DNA of 25,447 nucleotides from a virus (taxonomy: Duplodnaviria; Heunggongvirae; Uroviricota; Caudoviricetes). The notes beneath the pieces are model-generated. The model searched no databases, had not been told where the DNA came from, and saw only the letters and a program-made list of their open reading frames with translations. Each line of letters starts with the position of its first letter. The first letter of the stretch is position 1. A program made the position numbers and the translations under genes. Location: IMG/VR virus record IMGVR_UViG_2734482783_000014, one strand, 5' to 3'. Below, in pieces: positions 2,566 through 25,447 of the stretch.

Positions 2566-2911
2566 TCTCTGCTCCTGTTGATACGGAAAGGGAAACAGGC
2601 ACACCGTTATTACGCCGCCCGGTCAGCCCCACCACCATTGAACCGTCAAAATTGCTGTTAATGGTGATGGATTCCAGCGTCAGCCGTGGCTCCCAGCGAC
2701 TCAGCGCCACATACACTGCCGACATGACCTGCAGGCGTAATGCCGGATTTTGTGGCTGGTCTATCAGTGCCGACAGCAGGGAACCATATTCCCGACGGGC
2801 AATGCGGCTACCCTGCGGCGTCAGCAGAATGTCCCGCACCGACTGGCGCAGATGGTCAATATCAGTAATGGCTTTACCGCTGGTATTATTCATCCCGCTA
2901 TAAAGTGTCAT
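2552..2911 (-). CDS. W: Baseplate wedge protein gpW-like (GPW/gp25 family)
   Basis: 119-aa ORF between V and J. Start ATG at 2911 overlaps the V stop (ATGA coupling). Confidence 0.75.
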   Translation of the reverse strand: MTLYSGMNNTSGKAITDIDHLRQSVRDILLTPQGSRIARREYGSLLSALIDQPQNPALRLQVMSAVYVALSRWEPRLTLESITINSNFDGSMVVGLTGRRNNGVPVSLSVSTGAENGSD

Positions 2912-3486
2912 ACCGGGCCTCCGGTGGTATCGCCGCCTTTCAGGACGCCAGTATGCTGATGCGCATCAACCACGATCCCGTTAGAACTCATTGCACCGCC
3001 ACTCTGGGTAACACCACCATTGATCACCACTTCGCTGTTAATACGCGTGCGGTCAGCCTCCAGCACAAACTCACTGGTTTTCAGGGTGATGTTGTCGACG
3101 GCCTCAATGACCATAGATTTGATGCCCCTGACATACCAGCGCCCGGTGGCGGGTTCGTATTCAAACCAGCCACCGTCAGGATGTTCTGTCACGCAGGCGT
3201 CCGCCGACTTCGACGGTGGTGCGAACTGATTCGAATAGACAGCGGGCAGCGCAAAGGCAGTTTCAAGATTGCCTCCCAGACTCAGCAGCACCACCTGCTC
3301 ACCTTCCGATGGTCGCCACCATGTGCGGGCATTACCGGCACGCAGCGTCAGCCAACTGATCCAGTTAGTTTCAAGGTCGCCCGTTTTCACCCGGCAAAGC
3401 CAGTTTTCCCGGTCCACTTCGGTGACTACACCTGTGCGGATCAGGTTGGTGATAAGGCGCATGATTTCGGTTAGTTGTGCGTTCAT
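2908..3486 (-). CDS. V: Baseplate spike/assembly protein gpV-like
   Basis: 192-aa ORF in the expected position; Gly-rich C-terminus is typical of gpV-like spike proteins. ATG at 3486. Confidence 0.75.
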   Translation of the reverse strand: MNAQLTEIMRLITNLIRTGVVTEVDRENWLCRVKTGDLETNWISWLTLRAGNARTWWRPSEGEQVVLLSLGGNLETAFALPAVYSNQFAPPSKSADACVTEHPDGGWFEYEPATGRWYVRGIKSMVIEAVDNITLKTSEFVLEADRTRINSEVVINGGVTQSGGAMSSNGIVVDAHQHTGVLKGGDTTGGPV

Positions 3487-3589
3487 AACGTGATGATTGT
3501 TATAGACACACGAAAAAAATTCGCTATTGTTGCTTTGTATGAGAAATCACACAAAACACGGTCAATTATTGAACAAAAAAGGAATCCCA

Positions 3590-4435
3590 ATGGCTACTGT
3601 TGTTTCTTTGATAAACATGAAAGGTGGTGTAGGTAAGTCGACTCTAACTGTAAACTTAGCTTGGCACTACTCATGCTATAATAACTGGAAAAAAAACGTA
3701 CTCGTTGTTGATTTGGATCCGCAATTTAACGCAAGTCAGTACTTAATCGGCACACAAAAATATCAGCAAAATGTCATCATTGATAAAAAACCGACTGTTT
3801 GGGAAATATTTGAGCAGCATACAAGAACACCTATGGGCAAACCGAATAAAGTTGACCCTAACGATGCTATTATTCGCGCCGTAACATTTACAAATGGTTG
3901 CTATATAGATTTATTACCTTCTAGGTTAGAGCTTGCATTATCTTTAAAAAGCCCCGGACAGAAGGTTGAATTACTTCGTAAAGCATTAAAAAAAGTTGAG
4001 GACAAGTATGATCTCATAATTATTGACTGTGCCCCAACCGAATCAATATTAACAACAGCGGCGTATTTAGCTAGTGACTACATACTTGTACCAGTAAAAC
4101 CAGAGTATTTATCAACAATAGGCTTACCATTACTAGTAAATTCAATGAATGACTTTCTTGGGGAACATGAGGATTCTAACTTAAAACTTGCAGGCATTGT
4201 ATTCAATGCCTGCTCAGGATATCAACCAGAAGAAATTAAATCACAAGATAGCGTAAGAGAATTAGCAAAGAAAAATGGCTGGAATGTTTTTGATTCTGAA
4301 ATAATCTATTCAAAATCTTATCCTAAAGGAGCCAGGGAAGGAAAACCTATTTTCAGAACATCATATGCTCGCACTACTTCAGCAAATAACTTTGCTAAAT
4401 TTGCTAATGAGTTCGCTAAAACGATAGGTCTATAA
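3590..4435 (+). CDS. ParA/MinD-family deviant Walker-A ATPase (cargo gene)
   Basis: ATG at 3590 preceded by an AAGGA RBS. The N-terminus MATVVSLINMKGGVGKSTLTVNLA carries the KGGxGK[ST] deviant Walker A motif, and IIIDCAP is a Walker B-like hydrophobic-Asp segment. Markedly AT-rich compared with the flanking tail genes. Confidence 0.8.
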   Translation: MATVVSLINMKGGVGKSTLTVNLAWHYSCYNNWKKNVLVVDLDPQFNASQYLIGTQKYQQNVIIDKKPTVWEIFEQHTRTPMGKPNKVDPNDAIIRAVTFTNGCYIDLLPSRLELALSLKSPGQKVELLRKALKKVEDKYDLIIIDCAPTESILTTAAYLASDYILVPVKPEYLSTIGLPLLVNSMNDFLGEHEDSNLKLAGIVFNACSGYQPEEIKSQDSVRELAKKNGWNVFDSEIIYSKSYPKGAREGKPIFRTSYARTTSANNFAKFANEFAKTIGL

Positions 4436-4437
4436 GT

Positions 4438-4974
4438 ATGACAACTAGCTCAGAGAAAAAAACATTTACTTTGTTGAGTGAGATTTTCTCATTGATTGCA
4501 AAGTATGGAGAAGAAAACTTCTACAATGCCATATCGAAACTCAACGATCCTGAACTTGTTAAGTCATTAAATCAAGTTAAAAGTGCAGCTATCACAAGAA
4601 AGCAAAGTGTAAAGAGCAGCAAGCACATTGTATCCACATCGAAAAAACCTACCGATATGCTTAATATAGATTTGGTAAATAATATCAAAAATCATTTAAG
4701 CAACATTAGAGTTTTCAAAGAAACAAAAGATGTAAGGAGCTATCTCGAAAACCAGAAATTCGTTAACCCTGACTTATTGAACAAAAGAAGTCGCCAGCAA
4801 ATGATCAGCACATTTTGCAAGCAATGTAGCTACCTAACCACTGAGACTTTAGAGTTAGTTATAAGTGAGTTAGAGAGAAAGCCACTTCATGGTCATACTC
4901 ATAAAGATGACAGAAGCCTTGAAAATTGGTCAGATATAATATTAAAAAAAGATAATAAAGCGAACGACATTTAA
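4438..4974 (+). CDS. Hypothetical 178-aa basic protein, translationally coupled partner of the ParA-like ATPase
   Basis: Starts 2 bp after the ParA-like stop with the same AT-rich composition. Lys/Ser-rich, no recognisable motif, no ParB-like signature. Confidence 0.6.
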   Translation: MTTSSEKKTFTLLSEIFSLIAKYGEENFYNAISKLNDPELVKSLNQVKSAAITRKQSVKSSKHIVSTSKKPTDMLNIDLVNNIKNHLSNIRVFKETKDVRSYLENQKFVNPDLLNKRSRQQMISTFCKQCSYLTTETLELVISELERKPLHGHTHKDDRSLENWSDIILKKDNKANDI

Positions 4975-5061: not shown

Positions 5062-5511
5062 TTATTTCCAGTTCAATTCTTGAATTAAAGTATCAAGCAC
5101 TATGTCGTGAACCTCTCTATTTCTACCAAGTAGTCTCCTACTTGCATATCTCACCTCCGGTCCTTTGCGACTAACGCGATCACGCAGGCCATAATGATGA
5201 ACACGGGCAATGCGCTGTACCTTACCTTCAAACTGCACGCTGGCAGAATCGGCGCTGGCGGCAGTTTTCAGGTATTTTGTGGTGCGCAGCTTTGCAAACA
5301 TCTGACGTTTGATACGGCCTTTTTTACTGCGTGCTGTTAACCGTCGCGGTTCATAGCTGCTGCCGTCAGGATTGCGCTGCATCCTGATATTCTGCTGCTG
5401 TGTCCGGCGCAGTTCCTGCGCCAGCTGGCGCATCATACGGCTTCTTGCGGCTGGCTCCAGATTCGCCAGCAAGGCACTCAGCCAGTCGTCCACTTTCTGC
5501 AGTTCAGCCAC
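5062..5511 (-). CDS. S: Tail completion protein gpS-like
   Basis: 149-aa ORF (MAELQKVDDWLSALLANLEPAARSRMMRQLAQELRRT...) of P2 gpS size and position. Start is GTG at 5511, overlapping the R stop. Confidence 0.75.
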   Translation of the reverse strand: MAELQKVDDWLSALLANLEPAARSRMMRQLAQELRRTQQQNIRMQRNPDGSSYEPRRLTARSKKGRIKRQMFAKLRTTKYLKTAASADSASVQFEGKVQRIARVHHYGLRDRVSRKGPEVRYASRRLLGRNREVHDIVLDTLIQELNWK

Positions 5512-11014: not shown

Positions 11015-12781
11015 ATGAACACCACACTGACACCCGCAGATCTCGATCCCCGTAGGCAGGCCATGCTGCTGTACTTTCAGGGATACCGCGTAGCCCGCAT
11101 TGCTGAAATGCTGGGCGAGAAAGTTGCAACCGTTCACAGCTGGAAGAAACGCGACAAGTGGGGTGACTATGGGCCGCTGGATCAGATGCAGCTCACCACC
11201 GCCGCCCGCTACTGCCAGCTCATTATGAAGGAGCACAAAGAAGGGAAAGATTTCAAAGAGATTGACCTGCTGGCGCGCCAGTCGGAGCGCCATGCACGGA
11301 TCGGCAAGTTTAACAATGGCGGCAACGAAGCCGACTTAAACCCTAACGTCGCCAACCGCAACAAAGGCCCACGCCGTCAGCCGGAAAAGAATGTTTTCAC
11401 CGATGAACAGATTGAAAAGCTGGAGGAAATCTTCCATTCCTCCATGTTCAACTACCAGCGCCACTGGTGGGAAGCCGGAAAAACCAATCGCATCCGTAAC
11501 CTGCTGAAGTCTCGCCAGATCGGCGCGACCTTCTATTTTGCCCGTGAAGCCCTGATTGACGCCCTGCTGACCGGACGTAACCAGATTTTCCTTTCTGCCA
11601 GTAAGGCTCAGGCCCACGTCTTTAAACAGTACATCATCGACTTCGCCAAAGAAGTCGAAGTGGAGCTGAAAGGCGATCCGATGGTGCTTCCCAACGGGGC
11701 CACGCTTTACTTCCTCGGCACCAATGCCCGCACGGCGCAGAGTTACCACGGCAACCTGTATCTGGATGAATATTTCTGGATACCGAAATTCCAGGAGCTG
11801 CGCAAAGTGGCTTCCGGTATGGCTATTCACAAGAAATGGCGACAGACCTATTTTTCCACGCCATCCAGCCTGACCCACAGTGCTTATCCGTTCTGGTCCG
11901 GTGCGCTGTTCAACCGTGGACGCAACAAAGCCGACAAGGTGGACATCGACCTGTCCCACAGCAATCTGGCCCCCGGCCTGCTGTGCGCAGACGGGCAATA
12001 CCGCCAGATAGTCACCGTGGAAGATGCAGTGCGCGGCGGCTGTAACCTGTTCGACCTTGACCAGTTGCGCATGGAGTACAGCCCGGATGAATACCTGAAC
12101 CTGCTGATGTGCGAGTTCGTGGACGATCTCGCGTCCGTGTTTCCGCTCAGCGAGCTGCAGGCGTGCATGGTGGACAGCTGGGAAGTCTGGACCGACTTTC
12201 ATGCACTGGCCCTTCGCCCGTTTGGCTGGCGCGAAGTGTGGATCGGTTATGACCCGGCAAAAGGTACGCAGAACGGCGACAGCGCCGGATGCGTGGTGGT
12301 GGCACCGCCAGCCGTGCCGGGCGGTAAGTTCCGCATTCTTGAGCGTCACCAGTGGCGCGGGATGGACTTCCGCGCCCAGGCTGACGCCATCAAAAAACTG
12401 ACCGAACAGTACAACGTGACCTACATCGGTATCGACTCAACCGGCGTTGGTCACGGGGTTTATGAGAACGTGAAAGCATTCTTTCCTGCCGTCCGGGAGT
12501 TTGTCTACAACCCCAACGTTAAAAACGCCCTGGTGCTCAAGGCCTACGACATTATCAGCCACCGCCGTCTGGAGTTTGACGCCGGACACACCGACATAGC
12601 GCAGTCATTCATGGCAATCCGTCGCGCCACCACCGCCAGCGGCAACCGCCCGACCTATGAAGCCAGCCGCAGCGAAGAAGCCAGCCATGCCGATCTGGCC
12701 TGGGCAACAATGCACGCACTGTTTAACGAACCGCTGCAGGGCGAATCCGCCAATACCAGCAATATTGTGGAGATTTTTTGA
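11015..12781 (+). CDS. P: Terminase large (ATPase) subunit gpP-like
   Basis: 588-aa ORF divergent from O, of the size and position of P2 gpP. Stop overlaps the Q start (TGATG). Confidence 0.9.
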   Translation: MNTTLTPADLDPRRQAMLLYFQGYRVARIAEMLGEKVATVHSWKKRDKWGDYGPLDQMQLTTAARYCQLIMKEHKEGKDFKEIDLLARQSERHARIGKFNNGGNEADLNPNVANRNKGPRRQPEKNVFTDEQIEKLEEIFHSSMFNYQRHWWEAGKTNRIRNLLKSRQIGATFYFAREALIDALLTGRNQIFLSASKAQAHVFKQYIIDFAKEVEVELKGDPMVLPNGATLYFLGTNARTAQSYHGNLYLDEYFWIPKFQELRKVASGMAIHKKWRQTYFSTPSSLTHSAYPFWSGALFNRGRNKADKVDIDLSHSNLAPGLLCADGQYRQIVTVEDAVRGGCNLFDLDQLRMEYSPDEYLNLLMCEFVDDLASVFPLSELQACMVDSWEVWTDFHALALRPFGWREVWIGYDPAKGTQNGDSAGCVVVAPPAVPGGKFRILERHQWRGMDFRAQADAIKKLTEQYNVTYIGIDSTGVGHGVYENVKAFFPAVREFVYNPNVKNALVLKAYDIISHRRLEFDAGHTDIAQSFMAIRRATTASGNRPTYEASRSEEASHADLAWATMHALFNEPLQGESANTSNIVEIF

Positions 12782-13815
12782 TGGGAAAGAGTAAGAAAAA
12801 CCGCGCTGCGTCGACGAACCAGATTCAGCATAAAAGCCAGACTTCAGCCGAAGCATTCAGCTTTGGCGATCCCATTCCAGTACTGGACCGCCGCGAACTG
12901 CTGGACTATGTGGAATGCGTACAGACGGATCGCTGGTATGAGCCACCCGTAAGTTTTGACGGACTGGCGCGCACCTTCCGCGCTGCCGTGCATCACAGTT
13001 CCCCGATTGCCGTAAAGTGCAACATTCTGACCAGTACCTACATCCCTCACCCGCTGCTCAGCCAGCAGGCTTTTTCACGTTTTGTGCAGGACTATCTGGT
13101 ATTTGGTAACGCCTACCTGGAGAAACGCACGAACCGATTCGGTGAAGTTATCGCCCTTGAGCCTACTCTGGCAAAATACACCCGACGCGGATTAGACCTG
13201 GATACCTACTGGTTTGTGCAATACGGCATGACCACGCAGCCGTATCAGTTCACGAAAGGCAGCATCTTTCATCTGATGGAACCGGACATCAACCAGGAGA
13301 TCTACGGCCTGCCCGGTTATCTTTCTGCCATTCCGTCAGCCCTGCTCAACGAATCCGCCACGCTGTTCCGCCGCAAGTATTACATTAACGGTAGTCATGC
13401 AGGCTTCATCATGTACATGACCGATGCCGCGCAGAACCAGGAGGATGTGAACAACCTCCGCAATGCGATGAAAAGCGCCAAAGGCCCTGGTAACTTCCGC
13501 AATCTGTTTATGTACTCGCCTAACGGCAAAAAGGACGGACTTCAGATTATCCCGTTGTCAGAAGTCGCAGCGAAGGATGAGTTTCTGAATATCAAAAACG
13601 TGAGCCGTGACGACATGATGGCGGCACACCGTGTGCCGCCTCAGATGATGGGGATTATGCCGAATAATGTTGGGGGTTTTGGGGATGTGGAGAAGGCTAG
13701 TAATGTATTTGTACGCAATGAACTAATACCATTGCAAAAAAGATTTGAAGAGTTAAATGTTTGGTTAAAAGAAAAAGTGATACAGTTCGAAGAATATAAA
13801 CTTCATTCAAATTAG
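12781..13815 (+). CDS. Q: Portal protein gpQ-like
   Basis: ATG at 12781 (the tabulated ORF begins 3 nt earlier at TTG). 344 aa, following P. The last ~150 bp are AT-rich. Confidence 0.85.
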   Translation: MGKSKKNRAASTNQIQHKSQTSAEAFSFGDPIPVLDRRELLDYVECVQTDRWYEPPVSFDGLARTFRAAVHHSSPIAVKCNILTSTYIPHPLLSQQAFSRFVQDYLVFGNAYLEKRTNRFGEVIALEPTLAKYTRRGLDLDTYWFVQYGMTTQPYQFTKGSIFHLMEPDINQEIYGLPGYLSAIPSALLNESATLFRRKYYINGSHAGFIMYMTDAAQNQEDVNNLRNAMKSAKGPGNFRNLFMYSPNGKKDGLQIIPLSEVAAKDEFLNIKNVSRDDMMAAHRVPPQMMGIMPNNVGGFGDVEKASNVFVRNELIPLQKRFEELNVWLKEKVIQFEEYKLHSN

Positions 13816-13821
13816 CTTTAA

Positions 13822-13840
13822 GGCTGCCAGTTTGGCAGCC
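13822..13840. terminator. Hairpin (ggctgcca gtt tggcagcc) between the convergent Q and P-loop NTPase genes
   Basis: Perfect 8-bp stem with a 3-nt loop placed between two convergent stop codons. The flanks are only moderately T-rich. Confidence 0.4.
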
Positions 13841-13847
13841 AGAACCT

Positions 13848-15098
13848 TTATCGCCATTTTAGATAAAAAGCAAAAAATGGATCAGTAATATGCAACTTTC
13901 GGTCCTCCTTATCCCAATCTATTACAGGAGTTGAAGCTTCTTCCGTAGCAGCTATTTTAGCCATTTTTTCTATAACACGAGTAACCTCATGAGCTTGTGG
14001 AGGAGTATCTTGCACCAGTTCGCGTATGGCTGATCTTAACTCCTCATACTGAATACTTTGCATTCCTGGTTTCATATGTGACAATGCATATAATACAACT
14101 TTATATATATCTACTTCCTCACCACTTTTCAGTTTTCTAGGAATTCTGTCAGTTCGCTGATTAGGGCCACTAGCTAACTTATCAAATACTATTTTCCCAG
14201 TGGATTCTGCAACCTTTCTAAAAATATCATCATCTAAAGAATTAATAACTAACTTACTCGACAAAGTTTCTTTAACATTATTTGCTAAGCATATAGCCTT
14301 GCAAAACTCTTGCATTAAATGAGGACTTCCCAATGATTCATTGGCAATTTTATCAATTACTGAATCACTAACTTCCATGTTTAACAGAGGAAATCCCACT
14401 TTTGCTATTTGTTTTAGTTCATCCATTTCCCACGAAGGCATGGAAATATTTTCTAGCCGTCCGGTAATTTCTTTTTCAACTTTTACAGCATCATACCTTC
14501 GATGTGGAATGGCTATCAGTACAACTGGTACTCCATCAAAAACTAATGGTTTTATCGCTCTAATAAAGTTACCTTGTAGGTCACGATCGAGGTAATGAAA
14601 GTCATCAATTATAAGACTAGACTTGGTTTGAGAGAGAACTTTTAGTGCAGAACTTTTTGCGGATATCGTTCGCGATTTTTTATTACCATTTGACTTTCCA
14701 TCCGTCTGAACTAAACCAGCCTCACCTGTACCTTTAACAACTAATGCACTTGCGGTCCCCGATACCTTACCACTAACTGCAATAGCACTATTTTCTCCAG
14801 AATTAACTTCAATACTATGGTAGCCATTTAGTTTTTCTAATACCTGCTCCCAAATATCATCTTCAGTTGTAATACTCCCACCGTCAATCCATACAACATC
14901 ATCGTCCATGACTGGGAATACCATTCTTGTAATTACAGTCTTACCAGACTTTGTTTGCCCAGTTAAAGTTACTAACTTACATAAATTATCTTTAGCACTC
15001 TCCAGTTTTCCATGAACCTCTCCTTCAGAGCGCTCAACATAAGTCAATTTCGGCATACCGCCTGGCACAAAAACTTGTGAAGCACGTTGTTTATCCAT
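13848..15098 (-). CDS. P-loop NTPase, 416 aa, AAA+/STAND-like (cargo gene)
   Basis: Walker A GQTKSGKT and Walker B-like SSLIIDDFHYL, followed by a largely helical C-terminal half. AT-rich with an AT-rich upstream region at 15100..15190. Sits between Q and the putative cos site. Confidence 0.7.
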   Translation of the reverse strand: MDKQRASQVFVPGGMPKLTYVERSEGEVHGKLESAKDNLCKLVTLTGQTKSGKTVITRMVFPVMDDDVVWIDGGSITTEDDIWEQVLEKLNGYHSIEVNSGENSAIAVSGKVSGTASALVVKGTGEAGLVQTDGKSNGNKKSRTISAKSSALKVLSQTKSSLIIDDFHYLDRDLQGNFIRAIKPLVFDGVPVVLIAIPHRRYDAVKVEKEITGRLENISMPSWEMDELKQIAKVGFPLLNMEVSDSVIDKIANESLGSPHLMQEFCKAICLANNVKETLSSKLVINSLDDDIFRKVAESTGKIVFDKLASGPNQRTDRIPRKLKSGEEVDIYKVVLYALSHMKPGMQSIQYEELRSAIRELVQDTPPQAHEVTRVIEKMAKIAATEEASTPVIDWDKEDRKLHITDPFFAFYLKWR

Positions 15099-15205
15099 GA
15101 ATACTTCCCAATTAACACCGTTCTAGTGAACTACGATTCTAAAATAACATCTGAGCTTGGACTATTAACATTACATGATTTGAGTATTCAAAGCCACAAG
15201 CGCGC

Positions 15206-15224
15206 GCTCGTATCCCCGCCACGC
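15206..15224 (-). other. Candidate cohesive-end (cos) site
   Basis: Minus strand reads GGCGTGGCGGGGATACGAG. The first 13 nt match the 186 cos sequence GGCGTGGCGGGGAAAGCAT as I recall it (P2: GGCGAGGCGGGGAAAGCAC). Orientation relative to Q matches the P2 arrangement. The region is GC-normal between two AT-rich cargo blocks. Confidence 0.4.
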
Positions 15225-15270
15225 CTGCCCGCTTTATGTAGTGGTTTTCATGCAGATGCATGCTCTACGC

Positions 15271-15297
15271 AAAAGCCCGCCAGTTCTGGCGGGCTTT
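15271..15297. terminator. Rho-independent terminator (aaaaGCCCGCCagttctGGCGGGCtttt), bidirectional
   Basis: GC-rich 7-8 bp stem flanked by an A-run and a T-run, immediately downstream of the minus-strand three-gene operon. Confidence 0.55.
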
Positions 15298-15361
15298 TGC
15301 AAAAACGATCCTCAAACGATCATGCGATTTCATGCAGCATAGTCATGCAAAGTAGAAACTG

Positions 15362-15778
15362 CTATTTAACGTCCGGCGTTTGCGCTGTGGGGGATACTTT
15401 TCCATCTAGCGTATTTACAATTGAGAGGGGGTAAATTCCCATTTCAATTCCACAAATCACGTCGTAACGAGCCTGCGCTTTCTCTCGCATTTCTTGAGAA
15501 ACAGGGGACGATGGTGCATTTAAAACTGCTTCGGCTTGCTTCTTCAGAGCTTTCAACCGTCTTTTCAGTTTGATTTCTTGCGGATCAACAGCATAAATCG
15601 TCCATGCAAAAGTAAAAACTTCGCTTAAAAGAATTGACACCATCGGTATTGAAGCAATGTAAAGGTCTTTCCATGTTGGATCTGTAATGAAGCTAGCCAG
15701 CTTTATTAGGAAAAGGCCTACGCCGCCGCCACCAGTAACACCGACTGCTTTACCGCTTGTTTTCTTTTGTTCAGGCAT
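15362..15778 (-). CDS. Small membrane protein with two predicted TM helices (third gene of cargo operon)
   Basis: From ATG at 15778: MPEQKKTSGKAVGVTGGGGVGLFLIKLASFI... plus a second hydrophobic helix IASIPMVSILLSEVFTFAWTIYAV, then a charged C-terminus. Start overlaps the end of the upstream gene by 8 bp. Confidence 0.55.
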   Translation of the reverse strand: MPEQKKTSGKAVGVTGGGGVGLFLIKLASFITDPTWKDLYIASIPMVSILLSEVFTFAWTIYAVDPQEIKLKRRLKALKKQAEAVLNAPSSPVSQEMREKAQARYDVICGIEMGIYPLSIVNTLDGKVSPTAQTPDVK

Positions 15779-16034
15779 GAGAGGCTGACTCCTTCCTCTC
15801 ACGCTTATTTTTCTCTGCTATATCATCGATGAGCTTTATTAACTCATCATCATTGTTTATATAAATATTTGTTTTATAGACATTTTTGTTTGCATCAGTA
15901 TAAGTGATAGAAACTTTTGTTTCGACAATAACTCGATCGAGCAGGCTACGTATAGCCACTCTAGCACCTATAAATATAGCTGGAGCTGCAACAAGCAGCC
16001 CCAACCATCCTAACACACTAATATCTATAGACAT
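15771..16034 (-). CDS. Small single-TM protein, 87 aa (second gene of cargo operon)
   Basis: N-terminal helix ISVLGWLGLLVAAPAIFIGARVAI followed by a polar Asn/Asp/Lys-rich domain. Begins 2 bp after the upstream gene's stop. Confidence 0.55.
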   Translation of the reverse strand: MSIDISVLGWLGLLVAAPAIFIGARVAIRSLLDRVIVETKVSITYTDANKNVYKTNIYINNDDELIKLIDDIAEKNKRERKESASHA

Positions 16035-16036
16035 TT

Positions 16037-16930
16037 TTAATCCGCATCAGGTTTTATTTTTCTATCTTTGGCGGCAAAGTGTCGACCCACTTTGATGATC
16101 GATAACTTTTCGTCTACCTGGCCACCGGAATCTTTCACAATTTTCTTCATCTTCACAGCAAACAATTCGCCAAAAATTTTGGGGGCGTCTGGTCCAGTAA
16201 CAAGCTTGATGAACTCATTATCTTCCATTCTGACATTGCGCTTTTCACCGCCAAACTCAACACGCCAGCCACTTTTTTTGTCAGTATGCGCCGAAACGAA
16301 TGTCACGGTTGTTTCAAATTCGTCAACTTCTTCTTTGGTTTCAAAGAGAACTTTTGGCGACTTAAACTCTTCTGCCTCATCTTTATGAATTTTGAGGATT
16401 TCTTTCTTAGAGGTGCGCGATTTTTTTACCACAAAATTGTCGATACCATCTTGTAACAGAGGCTGTCTGACAAACGCGTCAACAGCCTTACGAATCTCTG
16501 GGGCATTAACGATTTTTTCGACATCTTCAGAGCAAACAATCTCTTCACCATCGACTTTCAGCTTAACTTTGTCACTACCGTTAGCTTTCTCGACTATGTC
16601 GATCTTACGCCCGTTAAGCTTCTTGAGAACCTCTAAAACTGTAGCACCGCCAACGGCTAAAGGAATGGCTGACAAACCTAAAATTTGTACAACATCTTTA
16701 GCATTAGCTAGATGTTGTACAACCTCAATATCAAACCCAAAGGAACCGGCTATCAATTCAGCGTCAACGTTAACTTCAATGTCTCGCCCTCCGTTTACAA
16801 TCTCATTTGCAGAGTAGATAGCCTCACCTAGCCCCTGCAAACTTTTCGCAAACGAAAGAATATCCATCTTATGATCGTCGAGAGCTTTGCCTTGATACAC
16901 AATACTTACTGATTGAGTCTTATCCGCCAT
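16037..16930 (-). CDS. Hypothetical soluble protein, ~297 aa (first gene of cargo operon)
   Basis: Long AT-rich ORF, Lys/Glu/Asp-rich, with no recognisable catalytic motif. ATG at 16930; the tabulated ORF starts at TTG 16951. Confidence 0.6.
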   Translation of the reverse strand: MADKTQSVSIVYQGKALDDHKMDILSFAKSLQGLGEAIYSANEIVNGGRDIEVNVDAELIAGSFGFDIEVVQHLANAKDVVQILGLSAIPLAVGGATVLEVLKKLNGRKIDIVEKANGSDKVKLKVDGEEIVCSEDVEKIVNAPEIRKAVDAFVRQPLLQDGIDNFVVKKSRTSKKEILKIHKDEAEEFKSPKVLFETKEEVDEFETTVTFVSAHTDKKSGWRVEFGGEKRNVRMEDNEFIKLVTGPDAPKIFGELFAVKMKKIVKDSGGQVDEKLSIIKVGRHFAAKDRKIKPDAD

Positions 16931-17066
16931 TGAGTTCAGATCCGTTGCCAATAAAATGCGCGCGATTTTACGCCCATCACTATGTTTAATCTATCTATTA
17001 ATCATTTATCCCTCTAGCTGTCTACTATCGGACTCAAAAAACATGACTCATTACAAACGAAACCTA

Positions 17067-17300
17067 TCAATGCAGCCAGCTGTCGTCTTCCCACACCTTC
17101 TGCATAATTTTCAGCACTTGTTTTCTTTCTTCGTCCAGTTGCAGTCCGGTCAGTTCCACACCGTTAGAGCTACCTTTGCGGATACGAATTACCGTTTTGG
17201 GATACAGGAGGCGCAGATTGCGGTAAAGCTCGGATTCAAGGGCATCCAGGGTAGACTGGCTAATCTTCTGCTCTTTATCGATCATTATTTCAATGCGCAT
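17067..17300 (-). CDS. dinI: DinI-family protein (DNA-damage-inducible protein I-like)
   Basis: From ATG at 17300: MRIEIMIDKEQKISQSTLDALESELYRNLRLLYPKTVIRIRKG...ELTGL...QKVWEDDSW, the DinI pattern (MRIE... start, acidic C-terminus). GAGGTG RBS. Confidence 0.75.
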   Translation of the reverse strand: MRIEIMIDKEQKISQSTLDALESELYRNLRLLYPKTVIRIRKGSSNGVELTGLQLDEERKQVLKIMQKVWEDDSWLH

Positions 17301-17310
17301 AAAAGTCACC

Positions 17311-17499
17311 TCAGCTGATGACATCCATTGAGCGGTTGTATTCGTGGGTTCTGATTTTTGCCATGAGTTCATCTGTCAGTTCAGAAACCCACTGCAGAGC
17401 CAGCCCCTTCTCTTCATCACTACACTCACTAGCCGCTACAAGCTTAAGAAAAAAATCAATGCGCTGTAGCTTCAAAGACTCCAAAAAATAGTCCTGCAT
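17311..17499 (-). CDS. Small SOS-regulated ORF (62 aa), in the position of the 186 tum antirepressor but much shorter
   Basis: Perfect AGGAGG RBS 4 nt before ATG at 17499. A LexA box overlaps the predicted -10 upstream. Function is inferred from position only. Confidence 0.45.
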   Translation of the reverse strand: MQDYFLESLKLQRIDFFLKLVAASECSDEEKGLALQWVSELTDELMAKIRTHEYNRSMDVIS

Positions 17500-17539
17500 C
17501 TTTCCTCCTATGACACCAAAGCAATACTGTATGCATAAC

Positions 17540-17559
17540 CACTGTTTATATTTACAGTA
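17540..17559. promoter_or_regulatory. LexA operator (SOS box) overlapping a promoter for the small-ORF/dinI operon
   Basis: caCTGTttatatttACAGta has perfect CTGT-N8-ACAG spacing with an AT-rich core. On the minus strand a TATACT -10-like hexamer overlaps it and TTTACA lies about 15 bp upstream. Confidence 0.65.
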
Positions 17560-17651
17560 TATAATAATCTTACTGATGTAAAACGTTTTTTTACGTTCAT
17601 CAGCCTGATATGCCTGGTATTATTAAGAGCACGAATTGTTAACCCGCGTAA

Positions 17652-20066
17652 TTAATACAGGTTCCGCCACTTATCATCTTCCTGCAAACGCTGGTTCCGA
17701 TAGAAGATACGCAGGCCTGCTCCTGACGGAATACTGCCGCCGCGAAGGAGTAAATCGACCTCTTTCTCGCTACCATCAAATCCTCTGGACTTCAGCTCAT
17801 AGACGAGCTGCAGTCGCTGATGGTCTGTAATTCGCTGTTTGTAGTCTTTACGCCGTTTCGGTTTAACCAGGCGTAACCTTGCAGCCAGTTCCCGGCGCTC
17901 TTTTTTGCTCATACTGTGCAGGTAATCGTGCAACTCCTTGTCATCCATGCGGGTAATGTCCGTTCTGGTGTCCCCATCAGCTGATTTGTCTTTCCCTTGT
18001 TGGTTCAAATTTTCAGCAAGGGGACAGTTATTGCCACGAGTCCAAGGGGCGCAAGCGCCCTGGTCGGCTGCCGCCTCCTGAACGTCAACGGCCTTACGAA
18101 CCATTTTCCACTTCACTGCATGAGTGCAGATCTTGCCCTCTGCAATGGGTGACCAGATGCCATAAATACGAATACCGTGATCGCCATAGGCGGTTGGCTC
18201 TTCGTTGATTTCATAAGCGGTTCTGATGAGGTGATATTTGCGGGGAACCAGTACGCCGCCCTGCTTCATGATGTAGGTGGCAAAACAACCAGCATCAGCA
18301 GCAGCCAGGATGGCATCAAGGCGCGGGTTATCCAGTACCGGCGCACCTGCTTTTTTGTCACCCTGTTGCCTTGCCGCCTGACCAGCCAGCAATCGCAGTT
18401 CACGGTAAGCCTGACGCCCCGGAATGCCAAAGAAGCGGAATTGCTGAACACGATGCAGAGACGCCCAGGCATTAACGTATTCAGCGTTATCACGCAGGGA
18501 TTTACCCGTTTCCTTACTGATCTCGCCAGCCAGACCACGCCCGTCAATATTCTTACTGATATATTTCGCAATGTAGCTTGTCGGCGTTCCTTTGCGCGGG
18601 TTTATCAGCTCAGACTTAAAGCGCGGCCCCGTGTTATTGCCCAGCTCCTCGCGGTCTTCACGGATGGCAAACTTACGCAACAATGCAGTAATGGCGCGGC
18701 GGTCTTTTTTGCGCATGAAACACAACAGGTGCCAGTGAACTGTGCCGTCATGATGCGGCTCAGCCACCCGCACGCCATACCAGCGCAACCCGGCTTTGTG
18801 CATAGCCTTACGAAATGCAGCAAACATACCGACCAGATAATCACTGCTTTGTCTTACCGTCGCATTTGTCCAGGTCGGGTTGGGCCTGCCGTTATTTAGC
18901 GTGGAATGGAAACGTGACGGGCAGGTGATGGTGTAGAAAACGGCGCAGTCACCACGCATTTCCGCGATAAGCTCCAGACCTTTAACACAGGCCATCATCT
19001 CATTGCGGCGATGCGCAGGGTTGCTGCTGCTGGCGTTTACCACGTCTTCCATATCCAGCGTGTCGCCGTCTTCGTTCACCAGTTCATGAGAACGGAAAAA
19101 CTCCAGCGACTTACGGCGCTGCTCACGTTTATGCATCACGGCTTCATAGCTGACATAGGGAGATGCTTTTTTGCTGACCAGGCAAACAGCACGCAACTGC
19201 TCTTCCCGCCATTCGCAACGCATCTTCCATAATTTCCGATACCACCAGTCGGCGCATAACATACGCGCCAGCGAACCCGGAATGAGTTCATAAGGCACGG
19301 GTTTACGGCGGTTTCTTTTCCGACAGAGTTGCTCAAACGCAGGCGGGATAACATCCAGACGCAGGGTTTCCGCTGCCACCTTTTCCCATGTCTTGCGGAT
19401 TTCTTCTGGCGTAACATCATCGGTGGCATACAAATCGCCACAAGCTGTATCAAGGCACATGCTCATATGCGCAGCTACCAAGGTGGACAGGCGTTTCACC
19501 TGATCCTGACTCATTTCAGGCAGGATCAGCAGGCCGTCCAGCCCTTCATGGCTTGCCATAAAGCGAAAAGAAGTGGATAGCTGACTGTCGCGTACATGCT
19601 CCAGTCGTTCCAAGCATGGCTTAATCGTCTCACGCAAATAGCGGGAATAAGCCTTTGGCCTGCCCAGGCTGCTGAAGTATTTAATACGTTGCATCAGCGG
19701 CTTGCTGATATGGGAAGGCTGGGCGTTGACGTCCGCCAGAATGGCCATGTCTGGATTAAAACGCTGCTGCTCATGCGCCAGCTTTGCCCGGCTAATTAGC
19801 TTATCCTGCTCCATTTCGCGTTGGACAGGATCACGGGATTCATTAAAGAAATAACGCTCCCAGACCTGATCACTCAGTGCCTCGCGGCGCAGTTGTTCCT
19901 GCTCGTTATCGGCAGCGTACAGAGTGATCAGGTTTGAAAGCGCAGAAACCGGCGCAACTTCCGCCGGGTCCAGATAAGGGTTAATGGCCTTTTTCGGGCT
20001 GTTCCATGAGAATGCTGCGGCGACCTCGTTAAAGCCGCTGCAGTTGTTCATATCAGCATGGCTCAT
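17652..20066 (-). CDS. A: Replication initiation protein gpA-like (rolling-circle nickase)
   Basis: Contains [15 protein letters not shown] and [13 protein letters not shown], the metal-binding and active-site tyrosine motifs of P2 A-family initiators. ATG at 20066 overlaps the Dam stop (ATGA); the longer ORF extends to 20093. Confidence 0.9.
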
Positions 20067-20920
20067 GCACGCACTCCGTACACGACGGAACAATCCACGC
20101 CACGCGAAGGATCAAATCCTACCCAGCAGCGCGGCCCGGAAACAGCGATGATTTCTGTTGCAGATTTACTCTCACCAGCTGCCACGCCGATGCTGCGTTT
20201 TGCCTTGATGTAGTGGTGAGTAAAATTGCGATACAGCGAACGGATCAGGGATGTGTCACTGTTAGAAACAATGACCGGATGACCTTCAGATGATCGATGT
20301 TCAAGAACGGATGCCAGGTGATACTGGTCATCTTCAGTGAAGCCATCAGTGTGATAGCCGGAAAACGTACCGTCATAAGGCGGATCGCAATACACCACAT
20401 CCCCCGCCTTCAACATCGCCAGCGTTTCATCAAAGCTGGCGCAGATAAACGTTGCCCGCTGGGCTTTCTCTGCAAATGCGCGAATTTCTTTTTCAGGGAA
20501 ATACGGATTTTTATAATTACCGTAGGGAATGTTGAAATACCCGCTCTTGTTATAGCGACATAGCCCACGGTAACCATGACGATTGAGATACAGAAAATAT
20601 ACCGCTTTCATGAAATCAGTAATTTCAGTGGAGTAATTAAACTCCTGCCTTATGTTGTAATAAGCCACCTCTCTGTTTGCTTCCTCAAATAAAGCTCTGG
20701 CACGAGATATAAACGCCTCACAATCAGCAGCAACCTTTTTATAGAGGTTGATTAAATCAGGATTAATATCCGAAACCAGATAGCTGGGGTAATCCGTCTC
20801 CATCATCACAGCACAAGAACCCGCGAAAGGTTCAACCAGTCGCGTGCCAGCAGGAAGGTATTTTTTCAGTTCGGACATAATGGTGGTTTTATTACCCGCC
20901 CATTTCAGGATGGTGCTCAT
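20063..20920 (-). CDS. dam: DNA adenine (N6) methyltransferase, Dam family
   Basis: From ATG at 20920: [11 protein letters not shown]..., FAGSCAV, and the catalytic DPPY motif ([10 protein letters not shown]). AGGAGG RBS; start overlaps the upstream stop. Confidence 0.85.
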
Positions 20921-22506: not shown

Positions 22507-23025
22507 TCACAGCAAACCGAATGAAGCACCGAGGCCAGTCACGGTATCAACTGCACTCGCCATCGCAGGATTAGCCTGTAAACGGGCCTGCAATGAAACA
22601 GCCGCCAGCGCCATCAGTCGTGTTACAGAGTTAATGCTGCTGATAGCATCACGACGACCTGCACTGGTTTTTACATCGCCAGATACCGCACCTGCAGCAA
22701 CACGCCCGATCTCTGCGGTTGCACTCATGACGTAATGTGGCAGTTTCTCTTTTGCTACCTCATTAATCGGTACACATGGCAGACAATGAATCTGTGCCAG
22801 AAAACCATCTACCAACGTTGAATCTTCAGTCAGATCGGTAAGCAGCCAGATTTCTGGTGCGGTTAATAAATGAGGTTGAGCTGGGTTCAGCTTGTTCCGC
22901 AGAATCTGCACATTCATGCCCGCACGTTCTGCCAGTTGCACCAGATTGTGGCGCAGTGCGAATGCACGACAGGCTTCATCAAAATGTGGATGTTTGGAAA
23001 CTTGGTAATCAAACATGGTTTTCAA
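22507..23025 (-). CDS. cII: 186 CII-like lysogeny-establishment transcription activator
   Basis: 172 aa beginning [50 protein letters not shown]..., which resembles 186 CII as recalled. It is the second gene of the rightward early operon after the Apl-like gene. Confidence 0.6.
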
Positions 23026-23080
23026 CTCCGAACTTATCGCAAAATCGAACTCAGCGTCTTATTGCGAAAATAGACGTCTA

Positions 23081-23284
23081 TTAAGCAGACAAAGCATCAA
23101 CAGTCAGAGCAGCCAGGTTAATCATTACCTTTTCACGTTTTTTGTCTTTACGAAGACGATGACGAGGTAGTCGGCCATCAGCCAACATGTCGTTAATCGT
23201 ATCAATAGAAAGGCCAGTCAGTTCGCTATAACGTTCGATTGTGACATGTGGTGTATTCAGAGTAATTGAAATGTTAGGTGTCAT
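23081..23284 (-). CDS. Apl/Cox-like excisionase-regulator (AlpA-type HTH)
   Basis: 67 aa with an HTH-like segment [25 protein letters not shown] and a basic tail. First gene of the early operon, divergent from the repressor. Confidence 0.6.
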
Positions 23285-23429
23285 AAGGCAACATTCCTTC
23301 TAGATATGGCTTGTGGCGAGCCGTTGTTTGTCGTGATTAGTAGTGAAGGCTCCAAAAGAACACTTCTGGTTCAACTTTAAGATCGCTTTTGGAATCTGTC
23401 AACGAATTTTGGATTTCTTTGGAGGACTT
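23285..23429. promoter_or_regulatory. Immunity switch region between the Apl-like and CI genes (expected face-to-face lytic and lysogenic promoters and repressor operators)
   Basis: 145-bp intergenic region between divergent regulatory genes, containing a short direct repeat ttttgga (23392..23398 and 23406..23412). Individual promoter and operator elements were not resolved. Confidence 0.4.
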
Positions 23430-23999
23430 GTGGATTTCAATAGCGGCGGTAAGAAAGCCATAGAACGTTTAGTTGAAGCATATGGGTTCGGTACTCGTCA
23501 GGCTCTCTGTGATCATTTAGGTGTTTCTAAGAGCACCATGGCAACGCGCTATATGCGTGATATTTTTCCAGCAGATTGGGTAATCCAGTGCGCCCTTGAA
23601 ACGGGCACCTCGCTTAATTGGCTAACAACAGGGCATGGTTCAAAGCAAGCATCAGCAAATACAAATACTATAGAAGTAGAAAAATATTTATTGTCTGATG
23701 GAGCATTGCAGAAAGACGGTTTTTATATTTTTGATAAGGGATTTCTACCCTCTACGTTTAAAAAACCTTTTGTCATCACAGATAACAATTCTGAATTTAT
23801 TTGTGATAAAGAATTTGATGATATACGTGATGGTAAATGGGTAATAAGTATTGATGGCGAAATAACGATCCGTGACATTACTCGTTTACCCGGTGGAAGA
23901 ATCTTCGTCGAGGGTGGAAACAGAGCCTTCGAATGCAAGATAGAAGACATTGAAATAATTGGTAAAATTATAAGTTTAACAGTCAAGTATGTTAAATAG
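23430..23999 (+). CDS. cI: 186-type CI immunity repressor
   Basis: From GTG at 23430 (GGAGG just upstream): ...IERLVEAYGFGTRQALCDHLGVSKSTMATRYMRD...CALETGTSLNWLTTGHG aligns with the recalled 186 CI N-terminal domain (LDRICEAYGF...CALETGANLKWLLTGEG). 189 aa versus 192 in 186. The longer ORF from 23343 has no start support. Confidence 0.75.
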   Translation: MDFNSGGKKAIERLVEAYGFGTRQALCDHLGVSKSTMATRYMRDIFPADWVIQCALETGTSLNWLTTGHGSKQASANTNTIEVEKYLLSDGALQKDGFYIFDKGFLPSTFKKPFVITDNNSEFICDKEFDDIRDGKWVISIDGEITIRDITRLPGGRIFVEGGNRAFECKIEDIEIIGKIISLTVKYVK

Positions 24000-24014
24000 T
24001 ACCGGGAGGAAACT

Positions 24015-24206
24015 ATGCTTGGTAAGGTATTTTTTGTGGTTTTGTCATGTTCTTTGTTATTAAACCCACTAACTACCTATGCTAGAAATTATCCCTGCTC
24101 AGGGAAAAAGGGAGGTGTTTCTCACTGTACCTCAGATGGCAAATTCGTTTGCAATGATGGAACTATTAGTAAATCCAAAAAAATCTGTACTAAAAACTCA
24201 CGATAA
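24015..24206 (+). CDS. Small secreted Cys-containing protein (63 aa) between cI and int
   Basis: Strong GGGAGGA RBS. N-terminal signal-peptide-like segment [23 protein letters not shown], then a ~40-aa mature region with four Cys and many Lys. Confidence 0.5.
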
Positions 24207-24394
24207 CTTTTGTTTTTATATCTGCGTCTAAAATAAAAATGAGCCGCAGGTTAACCGCAAAAGTTACATGCTCACATAGCAAAAAGAATAGCCAACTTCA
24301 TTATGGCTTCAGTGAGATGTATGGTCGTAGGATTTCATACATTGACACTGGTTATACATACAGTAAAAATGCTCTCTACTGGAGGGCATTTTTT

Positions 24395-25447
24395 ATGGCA
24401 GTACGAAAACTCACCACAGGGAAATGGCTTTGCGAATGTTACCCCGCCGGACGAAGTGGGCGTCGTGTGCGTAAACAATTCGCCACCAAAGGCGAAGCTC
24501 TGGCTTTTGAGCGTCACACGATGGAAGAAACCGAATCAAAGCCCTGGCTGGGCGAATCAGTGGATCGTCGAACCCTGAAAGACGTGGTTGAGCTATGGTT
24601 CAAACTACATGGTAAATCTCTGACTGCTGGACAGCATGTCTATGACAAATTGCTGCTGATGGTTGACGCTCTAGGCAATCCTCTTGCAACCGATCTCACC
24701 TCTAAAATGTTTGCCCACTATCGAGATAAACGCCTGACAGGCGAGATCTACTTCAGCGAGAAATGGAAGAAAGGAGCAAGCCCGGTCACCATTAACCTGG
24801 AGCAAAGCTATCTAAGTAGTGTTTTTAGCGAACTATCCCGTCTGGGCGAATGGTCGTATCCGAACCCACTGGAGAACATGCGAAAATTCACCATCGCAGA
24901 AAAAGAGATGGCATGGCTTACCCATGAGCAGATTGTTGAATTGCTGGCTGATTGCAAACGTCAGGACCCAATTCTGGCACTGGTAGTTAAGATATGCTTA
25001 AGCACAGGCGCACGCTGGCGTGAAGCCGTAAATCTTACCCGCTCACAGGTGACCAAATACCGAATTACCTTTGTCAGAACGAAGGGGAAGAAAAACAGAA
25101 GCATCCCTATCAGTAAAGAGCTTTACGAAGAGATCATGGCGCTTGATGGGTTCAATTTCTTCACAGACTGCTATTTTCAATTTTTATCCGTGATGGAAAA
25201 AACGTCTATCGTGCTCCCTCGCGGTCAACTCACACACGTTCTGCGCCATACGTTTGCGGCGCACTTCATGATGTCGGGTGGAAACATTCTGGCCTTACAA
25301 AAAATTCTCGGACACCACGATATAAAAATGACTATGCGTTACGCACATCTGGCACCGGATCATCTGGAAACGGCGCTCCGTTTCAATCCTCTGGCAACGC
25401 TGCCAAGTGGCGACAAAGTGGCGGCAGCGGTTGGCATTACCCCGTAA
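24395..25447 (+). CDS. int: Tyrosine integrase (P2/186 family)
   Basis: ATG at 24395 with a GGAGGG RBS. The C-terminus has the tyrosine-recombinase signature (...RHTFAAHFMMSGGNILALQKILGHHDIKMTMRYAHL...). Stop TAA is the last codon of the window; the longer ORF from 24239 lacks an RBS. Confidence 0.9.
   Translation: MAVRKLTTGKWLCECYPAGRSGRRVRKQFATKGEALAFERHTMEETESKPWLGESVDRRTLKDVVELWFKLHGKSLTAGQHVYDKLLLMVDALGNPLATDLTSKMFAHYRDKRLTGEIYFSEKWKKGASPVTINLEQSYLSSVFSELSRLGEWSYPNPLENMRKFTIAEKEMAWLTHEQIVELLADCKRQDPILALVVKICLSTGARWREAVNLTRSQVTKYRITFVRTKGKKNRSIPISKELYEEIMALDGFNFFTDCYFQFLSVMEKTSIVLPRGQLTHVLRHTFAAHFMMSGGNILALQKILGHHDIKMTMRYAHLAPDHLETALRFNPLATLPSGDKVAAAVGITP

Follow-up and report, generated by a model that had tools for sequence, protein, structure and literature searches.

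What does a single nucleoside triphosphatase (NTPase) gene do between the portal gene and the packaging site of a P2-like prophage, a place at which P2 itself has no gene? The gene lies in the IMG/VR virus record IMGVR_UViG_2734482783_000014, a stretch of 25,447 nucleotides that we call the window and that represents a P2-like (Peduoviridae) prophage in reversed orientation relative to the P2 map. It occupies the minus strand at 13848-15098, between the portal gene Q and the cohesive-end site cos, and encodes a protein of 416 amino acids. We found that the gene is mobile as a single unit, that its position is one side of a published hotspot of gene diversity, and that it is an already catalogued, diverged member of a candidate family. 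Its function is probably anti-phage defence. More tentatively, we read it as a moron (lysogenic-conversion cargo) filling the portal-side half of the cos-adjacent hotspot and possibly acting as an effector-less, NTP-dependent switch against phages.

The gene is set apart from its surroundings by composition. The initial annotation, made from the letters of the window, had described an AT-rich gene of 416 amino acids, and the listing of open reading frames (ORFs) bore this out: the frame runs from an ATG to a TAA, 416 stop-free codons have a chance expectation of ~2e-15 at the gene's base composition, and its guanine-cytosine (GC) content is 37.1%, compared with 49.7% in Q and 56.8% in the terminase gene P. 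Along the window, GC is 53-60% over the structural genes and drops to 35-45% across 13500-18000. Because the gene is AT-rich and its neighbours have 50-57% GC, a foreign origin is indicated. The AT-rich upstream region attributed to it was likewise observed, as 99 base pairs (bp) of 34% GC at 15099-15197; a GGGAAG is located 6 nucleotides (nt) upstream of the ATG, and the upstream sequence differs among homologues in other backgrounds. Comparison with the allele of strain 64EVA (WP_000360886.1, annotated 'hypothetical protein') gave a ratio of nonsynonymous to synonymous substitution rates (dN/dS) of 0.17; the gene is under purifying selection.

Subsequently, we delineated the slot in which the gene sits. 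The cos site, previously called putative, is real: the circularised P2 junction aligned to 15199-15254 and placed the 19-nt P2 end at 15207-15225 (blastn, E = 3e-6). An exact-pattern search with the P2 and 186 cohesive ends, allowing up to 3 mismatches, gave no match because the site differs at more positions. This core is common to five P2-like backgrounds, in which homology ends ~9 bp beyond the cohesive end. The surrounding element, 15198-15349, was 91-95% identical in the best 25 of 60 phage records (query positions 1599-1750); it is common to Fels-2, RE2010 and the P2-like phages of Klebsiella and E. coli, and to most of 1,286 E. coli records. From the Q stop codon to cos the distance is 1391 bp here versus 167 bp in P2, whose cosL-to-Q-stop interval contains the terminator tQ alone. 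The expectation of a short packaging sequence in P2 therefore stood, while the figure of ~250 bp given for it did not. A hairpin parting Q from the NTPase gene, also noted earlier, is present at 13822-13840 as GGCTGCCA-GTT-TGGCAGCC (minimum free energy -16.7 kcal/mol, z = -2.2). Its position is that of tQ, annotated between cos and Q in P2, and it is probably a shared, bidirectional terminator of Q and the NTPase gene. Separately, the cos element contains a perfect 13-bp inverted repeat at 15271-15298, AAAAGCCCGCCAG-TT-CTGGCGGGCTTTT, between the cohesive end and gpA. The repeat may belong to the sequence recognised by terminase or, as a terminator working in both directions, insulate the two cargo slots from each other.

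Within this slot, the NTPase gene is rare. It was detected in 7 of 5,426 complete E. coli genomes (97.9-98.5% identity), whereas 1,281 match the Q/cos flanks. Among 50,697 deposited phage records no close relative was found, the one match being 27% identical, and the gene is absent from P2 and from every deposited P2-like phage. It is thus not a packaging or replication ATPase conserved among P2-like phages. The Q-to-cos interval of other prophages is filled by other genes, annotated as TIR, RES, DUF4145 or GTP pyrophosphokinase genes, which supports the view of the NTPase gene as foreign AT-rich cargo inserted between Q and cos. In E. coli SCU-485 (locus L025, 2761-3642), the 'GTP pyrophosphokinase' in this slot has ~166 amino acids and overlaps one of two small ORFs; the gene may be a fragmented RelA/SpoT-like toxin module. 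Moreover, degraded P2-like prophages (CE10, IAI39, AR_0013 and others) match the window as far as 13896, so that they retain the last 48 bp of the NTPase gene; in E. coli CE10 (NC_017646.1; locus L024, 3501-3796), an IS3 element comes next and a deletion extends as far as the cII region. As these remnants keep its 3′ end, the gene was once commoner than the seven intact copies suggest.

The position itself is a known one. The gpA-gpQ region next to cos has been described as a diversity hotspot with 1,650 gene arrangements, among them old and tin as well as several systems that have been validated (Rousset et al. 2022; PMC9122126). Table S5A of that study lists the protein WP_000360886 together with three further hypothetical proteins and DinI, in the gene count and order of the window. 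The companions WP_000893653, WP_016237789/WP_117611497 and WP_071533703 are probably the products of the three-gene cluster on the gpA side of cos, which comprises AT-rich minus-strand genes for proteins of 146 (15362-15802), 87 (15771-16034) and 304 (16037-16951) amino acids; the last of these matches PADLOC model PDC-S42 (7.8e-44), NCBIfam LAPAL_fam (2e-56) and phrog_3243. The cluster may correspond to a system of 'three hypothetical proteins' validated in that study. Between this cluster and gene A lie a DinI-like gene and a further ORF, small and conserved. Strain 64EVA carries the same NTPase allele with different cargo on the gpA side, and because of this pairing the two sides of cos are loaded independently. 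For the same reason, a functional link of the NTPase to the three genes across cos was rejected. The P2 hotspot accordingly has a slot on either side of cos, each filled separately, with the portal-side boundary at most ~10 bp from the cohesive end, a boundary that is useful for delimiting cargo in prophage surveys.

Homologues of the NTPase recur far beyond this locus. Portal-adjacent slots hold relatives of 69% identity in Salmonella (more than 1,000 contigs), 71% in a second E. coli lineage and 65% in Pectobacterium. A Serratia homologue of 70% identity (L021/L022, 5001-6260) resides in a lambdoid prophage, on the strand opposite to its neighbours, flanked by lambda-P/DnaT-like replication genes and by DUF1367, YbcO and antiterminator-Q genes; owing to this lambdoid copy, the single NTPase gene can be said to use the moron slots of unrelated phage families. 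In Vibrio cholerae, Pseudomonas, Nostoc and Desulfobacula the chromosomal copy is solitary, surrounded by housekeeping genes, and the chromosomal homologue of Pseudoduganella is near nSTAND1 and putAbiC genes. On plasmids of Selenomonas and Glutamicibacter, homologues of 25-27% identity adjoin type I restriction-modification, MqsA and Fic genes. Among eleven sampled contexts we found no recurring neighbour gene, and the NTPase was solo in each. The Vibrio cholerae homologue has a Tn5-type transposase ~750 bp downstream; in the other contexts examined, no adjacent transposase or recombinase was observed. The NTPase gene is therefore mobile as a single gene, across P2-like prophages, lambdoid prophages, plasmids and chromosomes.

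We next consider the protein. The initial annotation had read it as a stand-alone P-loop NTPase of AAA+ or STAND-like kind, and the Walker motifs together with the lid and winged helix of the structural model support this. Walker A (GQTKSGKT, residues 47-54) and Walker B (LIIDDFHYL, residues 162-170) are both present and are invariant or nearly so across 30 homologues, with K53 and D165 invariant as far as homologues of 25% identity. The Walker B is of the type 'hhhhDD-F-H', as in AAA_16/MalT-like STAND NTPases, and an N-terminal TYVxRxxE motif precedes the core. G213-R214, placed by strand 4 and helix 4 of the model's secondary structure, is invariant in the alignments, including the distant homologues; by this position, R214 would be an arginine finger. 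The C-terminal half had been singled out for structure prediction as a possible site of a nuclease or sensor domain. The model (predicted local distance difference test, pLDDT, 92.6 in this half) contains neither, nor any repeat-type sensor, and instead predicts an AAA+ lid followed by a winged helix, after which the protein ends with a LHITDPFFAFYLKW motif and no further Pfam domains. The modelled domain make-up is thus an NTPase core, a helical lid and a winged helix. In the lid, G257-S258-P259 aligns with the sensor-2 motif GTPR of the RuvB lid but without the arginine, GSPH/Q replacing GxxR. The winged-helix region contains a conserved basic loop, G311-P-R-Q-R-x-D-R318-x-x-R, and its first part is positively charged in every member (mean net charge +4.9). 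As a candidate MHD-like histidine, H403 (in LHITD) or H370 was rejected, since it is replaced in distant members; H370, H403 and the lid H260 are invariant in the close clade only.

Between the Walker motifs lies the fastest-changing part of the protein. The Gly/Ser-rich insert has a mean pairwise identity of 0.29, compared with 0.50-0.77 elsewhere, and is predicted to be disordered (pLDDT <50 at residues 97-142). Against the Salmonella orthologue, its dN was 0.53 versus 0.14-0.21 elsewhere, amino-acid changes accumulating 2.5-3.7 times faster. We regard the insert as a candidate specificity element.

Placement in a family was attempted with several profile collections. In Pfam, AAA_22 scored 26.4 bits against a cut-off of 27, and TniB (18.2 bits, cut-off 22.4; weak matches in 10 of 30 members) and AAA_16 (weak matches in 28 of 30) were also sub-threshold. 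KAP and DUF4143 gave no match in the profile search, AAA_14 matched one of 30 members at E = 0.008, and ATPase_2 (PF01637) had no sequence match in any stand-alone member. No significant NCBIfam match was found; in PHROGs the NTPase matches a family of unknown function. No named PADLOC system, Avs included, was matched, while the PADLOC candidate model PDC-S59 was matched end to end (E = 4.6e-32, 109.6 bits, residues 7-415 against profile positions 6-402 of 428) and, by the C-terminal half alone, at 5.3e-12. The earlier view that the protein belongs to no named family thus roughly holds as far as AAA_22 is concerned, and is amended by this candidate model. Searches of the PDB, with the single sequence and with a profile, returned nothing below E = 0.04, and a viral fold search returned generic clamp-loader-type AAA+ matches only (template-modelling score <0.3). 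The closest folds were ORC/Cdc6, TnsC/MuB, archaeal ATPase_2 proteins and STAND NTPases; the lid and winged helix match SSO1545, NB-ARC and Cdc6, and the fold scores to TnsC and MuB were good. By its motifs, the NTPase falls between the STAND NTPases and the AAA+ clade of initiators.

The family is large and uniform. A word-indexed search retrieved 1,672 homologues, and an exhaustive search 2,296 clusters at 50% identity with E <= 1e-3, 613 of them with E <= 1e-30. Members have ~420 amino acids almost throughout (at most 481 in 148 of the best 150 representatives), and an identity of ~55% is retained from Enterobacteria to Nostoc and Desulfobacula. The other two of these representatives, P0123 and P0126 (loci L017-L019), are natural fusions of ~900 amino acids with a second P-loop domain (GRRGSGKT) that weakly matches nSTAND3, ATPase_2 and PDC-M28C, and with an uncharacterised C-terminal region. 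P0123 was found on several independent metagenomic contigs and is for that reason a real gene.

The protein was compared with known systems. With PDC-S59 it shares the single-gene format, the length of ~420 amino acids and the end-to-end match to the hidden Markov model, but the score is modest (110 bits), and plasmid copies from Firmicutes and Actinobacteria have only ~25-35% identity with the prophage and proteobacterial branch. The PDC models derive from genes that lie within type I restriction-modification, BREX or DISARM loci, an approach termed 'guilt-by-embedding' (Payne et al., bioRxiv 10.1101/2024.01.29.577857), and the distant NTPase homologues adjoin type I restriction-modification genes, as this principle predicts. 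Like the P2 hotspot cargo old, tin and the Rst systems, the gene is AT-rich, separately transcribed and at the same locus. Old, however, combines an ABC-type ATPase with a TOPRIM nuclease in one protein, whereas the NTPase is without a nuclease and is encoded between cos and the portal gene, not between cos and gpA. ORC/Cdc6 proteins resemble it in fold, with an AAA+ core, a lid and a C-terminal winged helix; in contrast to them, its Walker B has DD rather than DE, its GxP lid is without a sensor-2 arginine, and no stand-alone member matches the Pfam Cdc6/ORC model. From TniB, TnsC and MuB it differs in that the family's TniB match is sub-threshold and that no origin, transposase or partner subunit adjoins the gene. 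The STAND class (Leipe et al. 2004) has in common with it the DD Walker B, the GxP in the helical domain and the winged helix, but the NTPase is without the conserved winged-helix histidine (MHD/LHD-like), an effector fusion and sensor repeats. The archaeal ATPase_2 proteins SSO1545 (PDB 2fna) and PAB2304 (PDB 2qen) are fold relatives, although stand-alone members of the NTPase family have no ATPase_2 sequence match; a literature search on SSO1545 and PAB2304 found nothing relevant to function. BrxC belongs to the ORC/Cdc6-like clade, is a much larger protein and works in a six-gene system that includes a methyltransferase. One report describes BrxC/PglY of BREX as a multimerising, DNA-binding ATPase and BREX as inhibiting phage DNA replication (PMC13326643). 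On this account, BrxC, from a defence system that restricts without cleavage, is a mechanistic precedent for the mode of action proposed below, but no sequence relationship was detected and PADLOC gave no BrxC match for the NTPase.

How might such a protein protect a lysogen? The defence role is read from association, namely the hotspot position, the PDC-S59 match and the neighbours of distant homologues. In the mechanism that we propose, the prophage would express the NTPase from its own transcription unit, shielding the lysogen from other phages. A cue from the infecting phage, for which the hypervariable insert is a possible reader, would trigger ATP-dependent self-assembly on nucleic acid through the basic winged-helix loop; R214 would complete hydrolysis in trans, and the assembly would stop the invader's replication or packaging without cutting. 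The proposal draws on analogy with the DNA loading of ORC, TnsC and MuB, and with BrxC, and we regard ATP-dependent assembly on nucleic acid as the likeliest account of how an invader would be blocked, though in itself a doubtful one. In its boldest form, which we call a 'rogue initiator', the ~47-kDa effector-less protein alone would suffice for immunity, sensing the invader via the insert, polymerising with ATP on the invading DNA and stopping its replication or packaging with neither DNA cleavage nor cell death; this form is unlikely.

Several observations weigh against the reading of the gene as an anti-phage switch. In approximately a quarter of its loci, the hotspot contains partition systems or other cargo unrelated to defence (PMC9122126), and position is for that reason weak evidence by itself. 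In Table S5A of the same study the exact protein is entered as 'hypothetical', and it was not tested there; the 145 PDCs are without exception presented as untested (Payne et al., bioRxiv 10.1101/2024.01.29.577857), and a literature search found no paper that mentions PDC-S59 or WP_000360886. No sigma-70 consensus site above the promoter-scan threshold was detected upstream of the gene. The whole-protein model has a pLDDT of 74, its N-terminal half being of moderate confidence. The insert, too, may be just a linker, given that it is disordered, absent from the Selenomonas plasmid homologue and, in a check for positive selection, had an omega of ~0.3, not above 1, with dS close to saturation. 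Finally, neither the model nor domain scans revealed an effector domain in the NTPase, whether nuclease or other, so that a blocking or killing activity is conjecture and the label 'defence effector' in the initial annotation is inaccurate.

Other explanations were weighed against the effector-less switch. In the first, the gene is an abortive-infection switch: the NTPase senses infection, and runaway hydrolysis of ATP or other NTPs, or a toxic oligomer, stops the growth of the infected cell before the phage cycle is complete. As a single gene without an effector it could itself be the output, its catalytic motifs show strict conservation that extends to the arginine-finger position, and it has STAND-like traits in the DD Walker B and the GxP lid. 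The STAND class is typically tied to cell-death switches (Leipe et al. 2004). However, depletion of ATP by an AAA+-type enzyme of this size needs very high turnover, and the conserved basic winged helix and the ORC/TnsC/MuB-like fold suggest a nucleic-acid partner; we consider abortive infection an unlikely explanation.

A role outside immunity was judged to have rather low probability. The protein would here be a regulator or maintenance factor of mobile DNA, for example a MalT-like, ATP-dependent transcription factor working via the winged helix or a TniB/IstB/MuB-like helper that marks DNA for a transposase or recombinase, hitch-hiking in a hotspot that also holds non-defence cargo. The weak TniB matches, the good fold scores to TnsC and MuB and the transposase downstream of the Vibrio cholerae copy are consistent with such a helper, but the TniB scores are below the Pfam cut-off, every other context examined is without an adjacent transposase or recombinase, and the association with restriction-modification and toxin-antitoxin loci and the match to PDC-S59 favour conflict systems.

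Improbable, too, is a sensor or adaptor that needs an effector in trans. The gene would then be half a system, completed by a nuclease or protease of the host or by another STAND-type protein. An NTPase module without an effector fits this, and the rare fusions P0123 and P0126 add just such a second P-loop domain resembling nSTAND3/ATPase_2; yet the fusions are two of the best 150 representatives, no neighbour recurs in the eleven contexts, and the host effector would have to be conserved from Nostoc to E. coli. That the prophage uses the NTPase for its own packaging or replication, as an accessory ATPase acting at cos, is close to refuted: the gene adjoins cos, the portal gene and the terminase genes and its product has an ORC/Cdc6-like fold, but it is rare among genomes that carry the flanks, missing from P2 and the deposited P2-like phages, replaced by unrelated genes elsewhere, marked as foreign by its AT-rich composition, and has homologues in a lambdoid prophage, plasmids and cyanobacterial chromosomes.

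Features of the locus and of the encoded NTPase, with positions in the window.
Feature	Position	Strand	Basis or remark
Terminase gene P	11015-12781	+	ORF listing
Portal gene Q	12778-13815	+	Pfam Phage_portal 1.4e-17; phage portal annotation in matching genomes; left-hand slot border
Hairpin, 8-bp GC stem	13822-13840		between the convergent Q and NTPase genes
NTPase coding sequence, 416 amino acids	13848-15098	-	ORF listing, homologues, PADLOC match
C-terminal half, residues 222-416: predicted AAA+ lid with GSP(H) 'GxP', then winged-helix region	13851-14435	-	structural model
Sensor-1 / second-region-of-homology block IAIPHRRYDAVKVEKEITGR, residues 195-214	14457-14516	-	alignment conservation
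Walker B LIIDDFHYL, residues 162-170	14589-14615	-	D165, F167 and H168 invariant
Hypervariable Gly/Ser-rich insert, residues ~90-146	14661-14831	-	between Walker A and Walker B
Walker A / P-loop GQTKSGKT, residues 47-54	14937-14960	-	K53 invariant
Leader/promoter region, 108 bp, 34% GC	15099-15206	-	cos to start codon
Conserved cos/packaging element	15198-15349		right-hand slot border
Cohesive-end core of cos, GGCGTGGCGGGGATACGAG on minus strand	15207-15225	-	blastn with P2 cos junction
AT-rich three-gene cluster	15362-16951	-	gpA side of cos
Replication gene A	17652-20093	-	Phage_GPA 8.8e-128

Two further low-GC stretches were observed in the window. A second AT-rich island, of 34-36% GC, lies on the plus strand at 3527-4974, between the ORFs at 2908-3486 and 5062-5511, presumably baseplate gene V and a gene for tail completion, which would put the island where P2 has orf30. 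Its products are a ParA/MinD-like P-loop protein of 302 amino acids (Pfam AAA_31, 3.7e-35), which matches PADLOC PDC-M28B at the P-loop level only, and a protein of 178 amino acids with no family match. Near the right end of the window, 23000-24500 has a low GC content of 37-41% and a positive GC skew.

If the NTPase proved to be without a phenotype, it would be one more uncharacterised moron in a well-described hotspot. If, as we propose, it protects lysogens, one untested PADLOC candidate would be validated, and a protein of 416 amino acids would provide a small, tractable model of an effector-less nucleotide switch that halts phages. Were the less likely 'rogue initiator' true, it would constitute a new mechanistic class of single-protein defence, comprising at least 2,296 clusters at 50% identity from Enterobacteria to cyanobacteria. 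Since the family is large, unusually conserved for a conflict gene and mobile as a single gene, the result would generalise widely.

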